A stretch of DNA of 64,000 nt from Lachnospiraceae bacterium Phil5. Lineage in GTDB: Bacteria; Bacillota; Clostridia; TANB77; CAG-508. The translations under genes were made by a program, and so were the position numbers. Position 1 is the stretch's first letter. The number at the start of each line of letters is the position of its first letter. The notes beneath the pieces were generated by a model. That model ran no database searches, had not been told where the DNA came from, and was given only the letters and a program-made list of their open reading frames with translations. Where the stretch lies: NCBI GenBank assembly GCA_002633185.1, contig NWBM01000002.1:438832-502831 (forward strand). Direction: 5' to 3'. Positions 63,764 through 63,927 of this stretch are shown one piece after another.

Positions 63764-63927
63764 GATTAAAATTTCAAAATTATGTTGCCATAAAAATATG
63801 TTAATAATTCGTTTGTTTGCTGGCGATTTGATTTTGGTGGAAGTTTTTTCTAAGGGAGCGCCAAACTGCGCACTTCACTGCGTATTAATATATTTTTATG
63901 GTACCATAATTTTGAAATTTTAATTTC
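63764..63927. ncRNA. Candidate structured element B: same GC-rich core as 51069-51192, inside an about 22-bp AT-rich inverted repeat, upstream of the yibE/F-like gene
   Basis: Arms ATTAAAATTTCAAAATTATG / CATAATTTTGAAATTTTAAT. Core CTGGCG...GAGCGCCAAACTGCGCACTTCACTGCG. Confidence 0.4.

Follow-up and report, generated by a model that had tools for sequence, protein, structure and literature searches.

The inverted-repeat element upstream of the yibE/F-like gene, here called copy B, is best explained as a decayed member of a family of MITE-like palindromic repeats; it is neither a regulatory leader nor the mark of a regulon. Copy B and a second element, copy A, are the sole nhmmer matches to the family profile in the window, the whole 64-kb stretch of DNA that was analysed (GC content ~28%). 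We regard both as probable non-autonomous, MITE-like palindromic transposable elements, carried by a few low-GC gut and rumen Clostridia as sampled.

The left end of the copy B repeat is separated by 101 nt from the yibE/F-like gene start (62491-63663, - strand; Pfam YibE_F match), in agreement with the ~100 nt given in the earlier note. The next gene on the + strand encodes a 70-residue dodecin and lies just past the window end, where it was read from locus L098. The long inverted repeat has a left arm at 63765-63806 (+), containing the family blocks ATTATG and AAATATGTTAATA, and a right arm at 63883-63924 (+), located by inverted-repeat search. The near-perfect 22-bp repeat described earlier is real and differs from that of copy A as claimed, but the arms are longer, at 42 nt and 93% complementarity, with the outer 20 nt perfect. 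They enclose a GC-rich core of 76 nt. Its left junction, ATTCGTTTGTTTG (63807-63819, +; family consensus yTCCGTTCGTTTr), is at least 90% conserved across 31 copies, a value independent of our search pattern, of which the junction is not part. An apical hairpin follows (63820-63863, +), in which CTGGCG and AGCGCCA close a variable loop of 33 nt that is G/U-rich and C-poor. The right junction is AACTGCGCACTTCACTGCG (63864-63882, +; family consensus AACTGCGCACTCCACTnCr), of which AACTGCGC and ACTCCA are retained even in long variants. The core string quoted in the earlier note maps to 63820-63882. At ~160-179 nt, copy B contains as its sole ORF a 53-codon GTG frame through the palindrome. When the region is folded as a single strand, the energy is -58.1 kcal/mol for the + strand (z = -8.9) and -43.3 kcal/mol for the - strand (z = -7.5).

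The gene pair dodecin(-)/yibE-F(+) is conserved in relatives, and the spacer between the two genes occurs in filled and empty forms. It measures 343 nt with the element present in the window (L098; YibE/F 100% identical) and 327 nt in L103 (87%), which carries the element at the same point with decayed arms and the core in the opposite orientation. The spacers of L104 (78%; 149 nt) and L106 (72%; 123 nt) are empty. Both flanks of copy B align to one and the same stretch of the empty L104 site, and comparison of L104 with the filled L103 site delimits a probable full copy of 179 nt at 63759-63937 (+), with tentative boundaries. It would lie between a putative left target-site duplication TTATTTAT (63751-63758) and, on the same basis, a putative right one ATATTTAT (63938-63945), a candidate pair that matches at only 7 of 8 positions. 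The alignment with L104 also places the dodecin -10 element (TATAAAT, 63967-63973) and the extended -10 element of yibE/F outside the insertion, as native sequence. A larger element of 262 nt (63718-63979) that supplies the dodecin promoter is ruled out by the empty L104 site, in which TTGCACA.AATAGTATAAAT is part of the native flank.

Two further features of this spacer were observed. The core of L103 (2270-2376) and that of the window (63791-63899) form an opposite-orientation pair, which could have arisen by a flip through recombination between the arms or by independent insertion at a hot spot. In L105 (YibE/F 74%; spacer 328 nt), an unrelated palindromic insert at 2190-2400, GC-richer and containing GGGGACGCGTCCC... 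and TGTCCCA repeats, sits beside the dodecin ribosome-binding site. Palindromic repeats seem to have landed repeatedly in the dodecin/yibE-F spacer.

Copy A (~51066-51194, +) belongs to the same family and is placed between rplU (-) and tsaE (+). By promoter scan, it is bounded precisely by the rplU promoter (51059-51031, -; TTGACA-17-TAAAAT) on one side and the tsaE promoter (51199-51227, +; TTTACA-17-TAAAAT) on the other. Its short arms, 51073-51093 and 51166-51186, are 21 nt long and 95% complementary, and their sequence is unlike that of the copy B arms. Common to the two copies is the block TTCGTTyGyTTrCTGGCG, separated by 29-31 variable nt from AGCGCCAAACTGCGC, beyond which identity is partial (86% over 37 nt). 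The shared core reported earlier is real, although the variable stretch between the conserved blocks makes it less complete than was implied. Two matches to the 17-mer occurred in none of 100 shuffled sequences, so the likeness is not due to chance. The similarity is limited to ~105 nt and the flanks are unrelated, which excludes a segmental duplication. The larger duplicated segment that the earlier note had named as its refutation is thus not present, yet the element did turn out to be an ordinary repeat in another sense, as a member of a mobile-element family.

The copy A locus also varies among relatives. In L108 (TsaE 86% identical) the promoter flanks are near-identical, the right arm alone is recognisable and the GC core is gone; in L110 the element is absent. 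L109 carries a long variant upstream of tsaE in the opposite orientation, and in L107 a variant of the element lies between tsaE and tsaB, a position unoccupied in the window. Since sites at both loci are filled, empty or decayed while the flanking promoters are unchanged, the neighbouring genes do not need the element, and the differences between relatives indicate lineage-specific insertions. We found neither a target-site duplication nor GTTAC termini for copy A. We propose that the two copies in the window inserted longer ago, into 'safe' spacers flanked by divergent promoters, and have since lost recognisable termini.

At the same locus, L107 (TsaE 94% identical) has a spoIIID gene between rplU and tsaE (993-1256). 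The rplU 5' region of the window (50926-51030, -) is almost identical in L108; it gave no Rfam L21-leader match at E ≤ 10 and may be a divergent ribosomal-protein leader.

A scan of one genome per species with the pattern CTGGCG-N20-45-AGCGCCAAACTGCGC returned 97 loci. About 50 of the matches fall in AT-rich loci from at least eight gut or rumen Clostridia MAGs (CAMPBM01, CANPWE01 ('Lapin-001'), CAMEHU01, CANRGM01, CANQKT01, JAFUYJ01, JAFXOY01 and DFEL01), with up to 16 or more copies per MAG. The other ~50, in GC-rich taxa, agree with the pattern alone and were rejected as chance matches. The AT-rich matches share sequence that is not part of the pattern: the left junction yTCCGTTCGTTTr, the right junction ACTCCACTnCr, an inner repeat AAATATATTAATA and long inverted-repeat arms. 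In this respect the earlier description holds: the element is discrete, recurs, and combines a conserved core with arms that differ from copy to copy. The genes beside other copies encode an HD-domain protein, an RsmE-type methyltransferase, phosphofructokinase (PFK), signal peptidase II, RF-2 and a flavoprotein; they are functionally unrelated, and the idea of a shared function or regulon among neighbouring genes finds no support. That the element is not a single-gene autoregulatory leader, as the earlier note had argued, agrees with its nature as a dispersed repeat and with the intact promoters of relatives that do not carry it.

Family members are 105-310 nt long. Conservation is far stronger in the asymmetric core junction (TCCGTTCGTTTRCTGG / CCAAACTGCGCACTCCA) than in arms or termini, and it fades gradually outward without a sharp boundary. 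In long variants the apical hairpin is extended to 110-140 nt, against 30 nt in the main form, and the junctions TCCG...CTTRCTGG and CCAAACTGCGC...ACTCCA are retained. The inner-arm motif is followed by the core in 59 of 61 cases, the exceptions being a contig-edge fragment and a divergent variant. Several genomes have arm subfamilies in common, such as the TTATGTA group and the CGAAAAAnGTCAAT group of CAMEHU and RGIG6613. Because arms and core always occur together and arm subfamilies extend across genomes, the arms belong to the element and not to host palindromes. One copy (L028:6039-6277) is chimeric: its left arm comes from one subfamily and its right arm from a different one.

Signatures of transposition are clearest in full-length relatives. 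The family termini are GTTAC...GTAAC, and many copies are flanked by perfect 8-bp duplications. Family 1 of CAMPBM01 is 161 bp long, with termini GTTACAATTCAGG...CCTGAAyTGTAAC and perfect duplications CATTTTCT, TTTATTTG, CCAAAAGA and AATTCAAA. The Lapin-001 form measures ~265 bp, ends in GTTAYTGTTTAAYAC...GTAAC and shows duplications such as ATATTACA and TATTAGGG. Copy B itself is without GTTAC termini. The family has the features of a MITE in its small size (for MITEs, under about 400 bp) and lack of a transposase gene, its many dispersed copies, and its filled and empty orthologous sites; terminal repeats take the form of GTTAC...GTAAC in the family, a 42-nt repeat in copy B and 21-nt arms only in copy A. 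No cognate autonomous IS with the same termini was found: neither terminal-repeat pairs 1-3 kb apart nor multicopy ORFs in 484 kb of loci disclosed an autonomous element or transposase, and a terminal-repeat scan of metagenomes found no transposase partner, although these searches ran on fragmented MAGs, in which absence is weak evidence. We take the resemblance of the termini to IS6-family ends, whose duplications are also 8 bp, to be too weak to claim a relationship. BLAST of a full-length family member against plasmid and phage collections gave no match; the single match in viral contigs, within coding sequence of 59% GC, was dismissed as chance. Our literature search on Clostridial MITEs and on the core 12-mers found no description of the family or of its core motif.

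Several related repeats were seen in the same loci. Other palindromic repeats (L052:5930-6150 and L031:1-150) have the same terminal block ...TTGCAAAACTATTAAACAGTAAC and an interior rich in GGGGACGG, which suggests a MITE superfamily sharing GTTAC...GTAAC ends with different hairpin interiors. A mini element of 70 nt (L089:5106-5176) consists of the two terminal blocks and 13 nt of arm, flanked by the 8-bp duplication TTCAAATT; its structure suggests that the hairpin and core were lost by deletion between AGTTATGT repeats. Several of the CAMPBM01 family-1 copies (flanks L002, L031, L048, L088) lie in sequence resembling ...AAACAGTAAC, with which other copies end; this points to nested insertion.

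The arms diverge rapidly in sequence but stay paired. Across 31 copies, 94% of outer-stem cells are paired, compared with 36-49% in slid controls, and 258 cells carry double changes, compared with 63 in shuffles. At 36 of the 39 outer-stem pairs, at least one copy shows compensatory change. Mismatches number 0-1 over 42-76 bp in most copies, the pairing departs little from strict Watson-Crick, and the few mismatches are without strand asymmetry (21 G:T against 22 A:C). The clearest case is Lapin-001 (CANPWE01; 12 copies, 39-bp outer stem), in which 25 of the 26 deviations from consensus are double changes that preserve Watson-Crick pairing and the remaining one leads to a wobble pair, with no mismatches. 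Gradual compensation at the RNA level would leave G-U intermediates; as these are missing, the palindrome appears to be maintained at the DNA level. Hairpin-mediated template switching and mismatch correction of quasi-palindromes are established processes. We infer from the pairing pattern that one or the other, rather than selection on an RNA, maintains the arms.

We propose the following mechanism for the family. Its unit is a long DNA quasi-palindrome with arms of 20-75 bp, an asymmetric GC-rich junction and a variable apical hairpin, which in full-length relatives sits inside the terminal repeats and is flanked by the target-site duplications. Mobilisation would occur in trans by a DDE-type transposase, as the combination of GTTAC...GTAAC termini and 8-bp duplications implies. 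A change in one arm would be copied to the other at the DNA level. The core is not required by the neighbouring genes and would most likely be kept at the family level, as a recognition site for propagation, for the transposase or for a host factor. Several observations sit less easily with a MITE. The window copies have no GTTAC termini, copy B shows only a 7-of-8 candidate duplication and copy A none, and the searches above disclosed no autonomous element. A conserved core with variable arms is the reverse of the textbook arrangement, and G-U pairs occur in the core helices in the + sense only. The orientation bias and stop-codon proximity of the copies, described below, hint at a strand-specific and possibly RNA-level property.

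Bacterial MITEs are characterized by terminal repeats, target duplications, the lack of a transposase and a long stem-loop, and their core may carry functional motifs (PMC3184786). The ERIC/IRU repeats of enterobacteria, 127-bp imperfect palindromes, resemble our family in being small, non-coding, intergenic and multicopy (reviewed in part in PMC3184786). They also resemble it in their long imperfect palindrome, well-conserved centre and presence or absence at orthologous sites, and they are often transcribed together with adjacent genes. They differ in that they have no sequence similarity to it, occur in another host phylum and have conserved arms, whereas the arms here are hypervariable and conservation is confined to the core junction. 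The Correia elements (NEMIS) of Neisseria are likewise MITEs with terminal repeats, target duplications and long hairpins, and their core carries a functional motif, an IHF site (reviewed in part in PMC3184786). In contrast to our family, with its 8-bp duplication, GTTAC...GTAAC termini and GC-rich asymmetric core, they have a TA duplication and conserved 26-bp terminal repeats. RUP and BOX of Streptococcus pneumoniae and bcr1 of the Bacillus cereus group are intergenic, hairpin-forming and at times transcribed repeats of 100-200 bp from low-GC Gram-positive hosts, comparable to our family (reviewed in part in PMC3184786). However, they are unrelated in sequence and have other signatures of terminal repeat and duplication. 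None among them is known to have copy-specific, perfectly compensated arms.

REPIN/REP elements, which depend on RAYT transposases, and the PATEs of IS200/IS605 are hairpin-shaped, conserve structure over sequence and show an orientation bias, like the family described here. Recognition of their hairpins is strand-specific and takes place on single-stranded DNA, and a Y1 (HUH) transposase mobilises them in this form. They differ in moving without terminal repeats or target-site duplications, and the clear 8-bp duplications in our family favour a DDE transposase over REP/PATE-type mobilisation.

The alternative that survives best, although we consider it unlikely, is that the core and hairpin are a functional structured RNA carried by the repeat and read from the + strand, which could act as a 3'-UTR stabiliser, a processing signal or a small RNA, with the MITE features as its means of spreading. 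It overlaps in part with the MITE-like reading. Between co-directional genes, the + strand of the element agrees with the gene strand in 23 cases and opposes it in 6 (p = 0.002), and the element starts directly behind the stop codon of the upstream gene, the median distance from stop to CTGGCG being 92 nt. This bias could equally result from selection against one orientation or from a replication-direction bias, and neither window copy occupies a 3' UTR, each being flanked by divergent promoters. On the + strand the apical loop is G/U-rich and C-poor, the core pairs U93-G146 and U/C103-G136 are wobble pairs in the + sense only, and copy B folds 15 kcal/mol better than on the - strand; copy A, however, folds better on the - strand. 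Helix 2 apparently covaries by eye among subfamilies (GTTCGT/GCGCAC, GTACGC/GC..GTAC, GTAAGC/GCTT..AC). The arms are nearly without G-U intermediates and show no strand asymmetry.

A promoter-like site, TTGTCA-16-TATAAT (63734-63761, +; 11 of 12 matches), adjoins the left end of copy B and points into the element, with its -10 hexamer straddling the insertion junction. By its consensus match, it could transcribe copy B on the + strand. No terminator is predicted after copy B, and copies are lost or decayed in close relatives with unchanged adjoining promoters. As a small-RNA gene, copy B would thus combine a promoter-like site with no terminator and a locus that is polymorphic among relatives. 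As a cis-regulatory leader or riboswitch, the element would have to accommodate its place between promoters, unrelated neighbours, relatives that lack it and the absence of an Rfam match. Rfam gave no family for the element, at gathering thresholds in the window or at E ≤ 10 for both copies and two long variants, and the sub-threshold matches were chance hairpins or of miRNA type. Other signals considered within the core were rejected: a sigma-54 promoter, an internal sigma-70 promoter or an intrinsic terminator, as the GG/GC spacing read from the sequence does not fit and is not conserved in long variants, and no terminator is predicted; and an alternative GGAGCGC/GCGC(A)CTCC switch hairpin, not conserved in long variants either. 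The Rfam search did identify RNAs unrelated to the element, namely a T-box leader at 23835-24076 (-), which scored 100 bits with the gathering score at 93, and three tRNA genes at 2910-2981, 39198-39280 and 39369-39442 (-).

A more speculative proposal, to which we assign a slightly lower probability than to the carried RNA, is that the asymmetric junction (TCCGTTCGTTTRCTGG / CCAAACTGCGCACTCCA) atop the hairpin is a strand-specific module, either RNA or single-stranded DNA, that is bound by a protein and is the target of selection, while the arms would be rewritten through single-stranded fold-back on movement or replication.

It is improbable that the core and its inner AAATATATTAATA repeats alone are the mobile unit, entering the loops of existing palindromes, such as terminators or other MITEs, whose arms would be host sequence. 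Such a unit would account for unrelated arms within one genome (L035 and L071 in RGIG4938; L056, L066 and L087 in RGIG6613), for terminator-like arms with A-run, GC stem and T-run in L066 and L035, for copies directly after stop codons and for other GTTAC-ended MITEs with a different interior. However, core-less arms were found in no locus, arm subfamilies are common to different genomes, the outward decay of conservation is gradual, and the 70-nt mini element resembles an internal deletion and not an unoccupied chassis. Gene-specific cis-regulation is largely refuted: an operator or leader for yibE/F or dodecin, with copy A serving rplU or tsaE in a common regulon, would fit the two window copies, which both occupy divergent promoter regions and are about equally far from a + strand gene, but has a negligible probability given the same gene order without the element (L104, L106, L110), with it inverted (L103) or decayed (L108), the dodecin and yibE/F -10 elements outside it, and the location of most family copies downstream of unrelated genes.

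For genome annotation, the MITE-like reading removes a false lead, as no new leader or regulon needs to be assumed, and mobile-element insertions account for two oversized promoter spacers. It also adds an undescribed repeat family to the poorly studied, uncultured low-GC gut Clostridia. Two of its properties stand out, the cross-species conservation of the core junction as opposed to the turnover of the arms, and the double Watson-Crick changes within one genome. Those of Lapin-001 would be an unusually clean natural example of palindrome self-correction. Should the core prove to function as an RNA or single-stranded DNA module, the family would illustrate how a structured element can spread by transposition; and if the junction itself were the selected module, uncultured gut Clostridia would harbour a structured mobile element, or a mobile non-coding RNA, of a type not described before.
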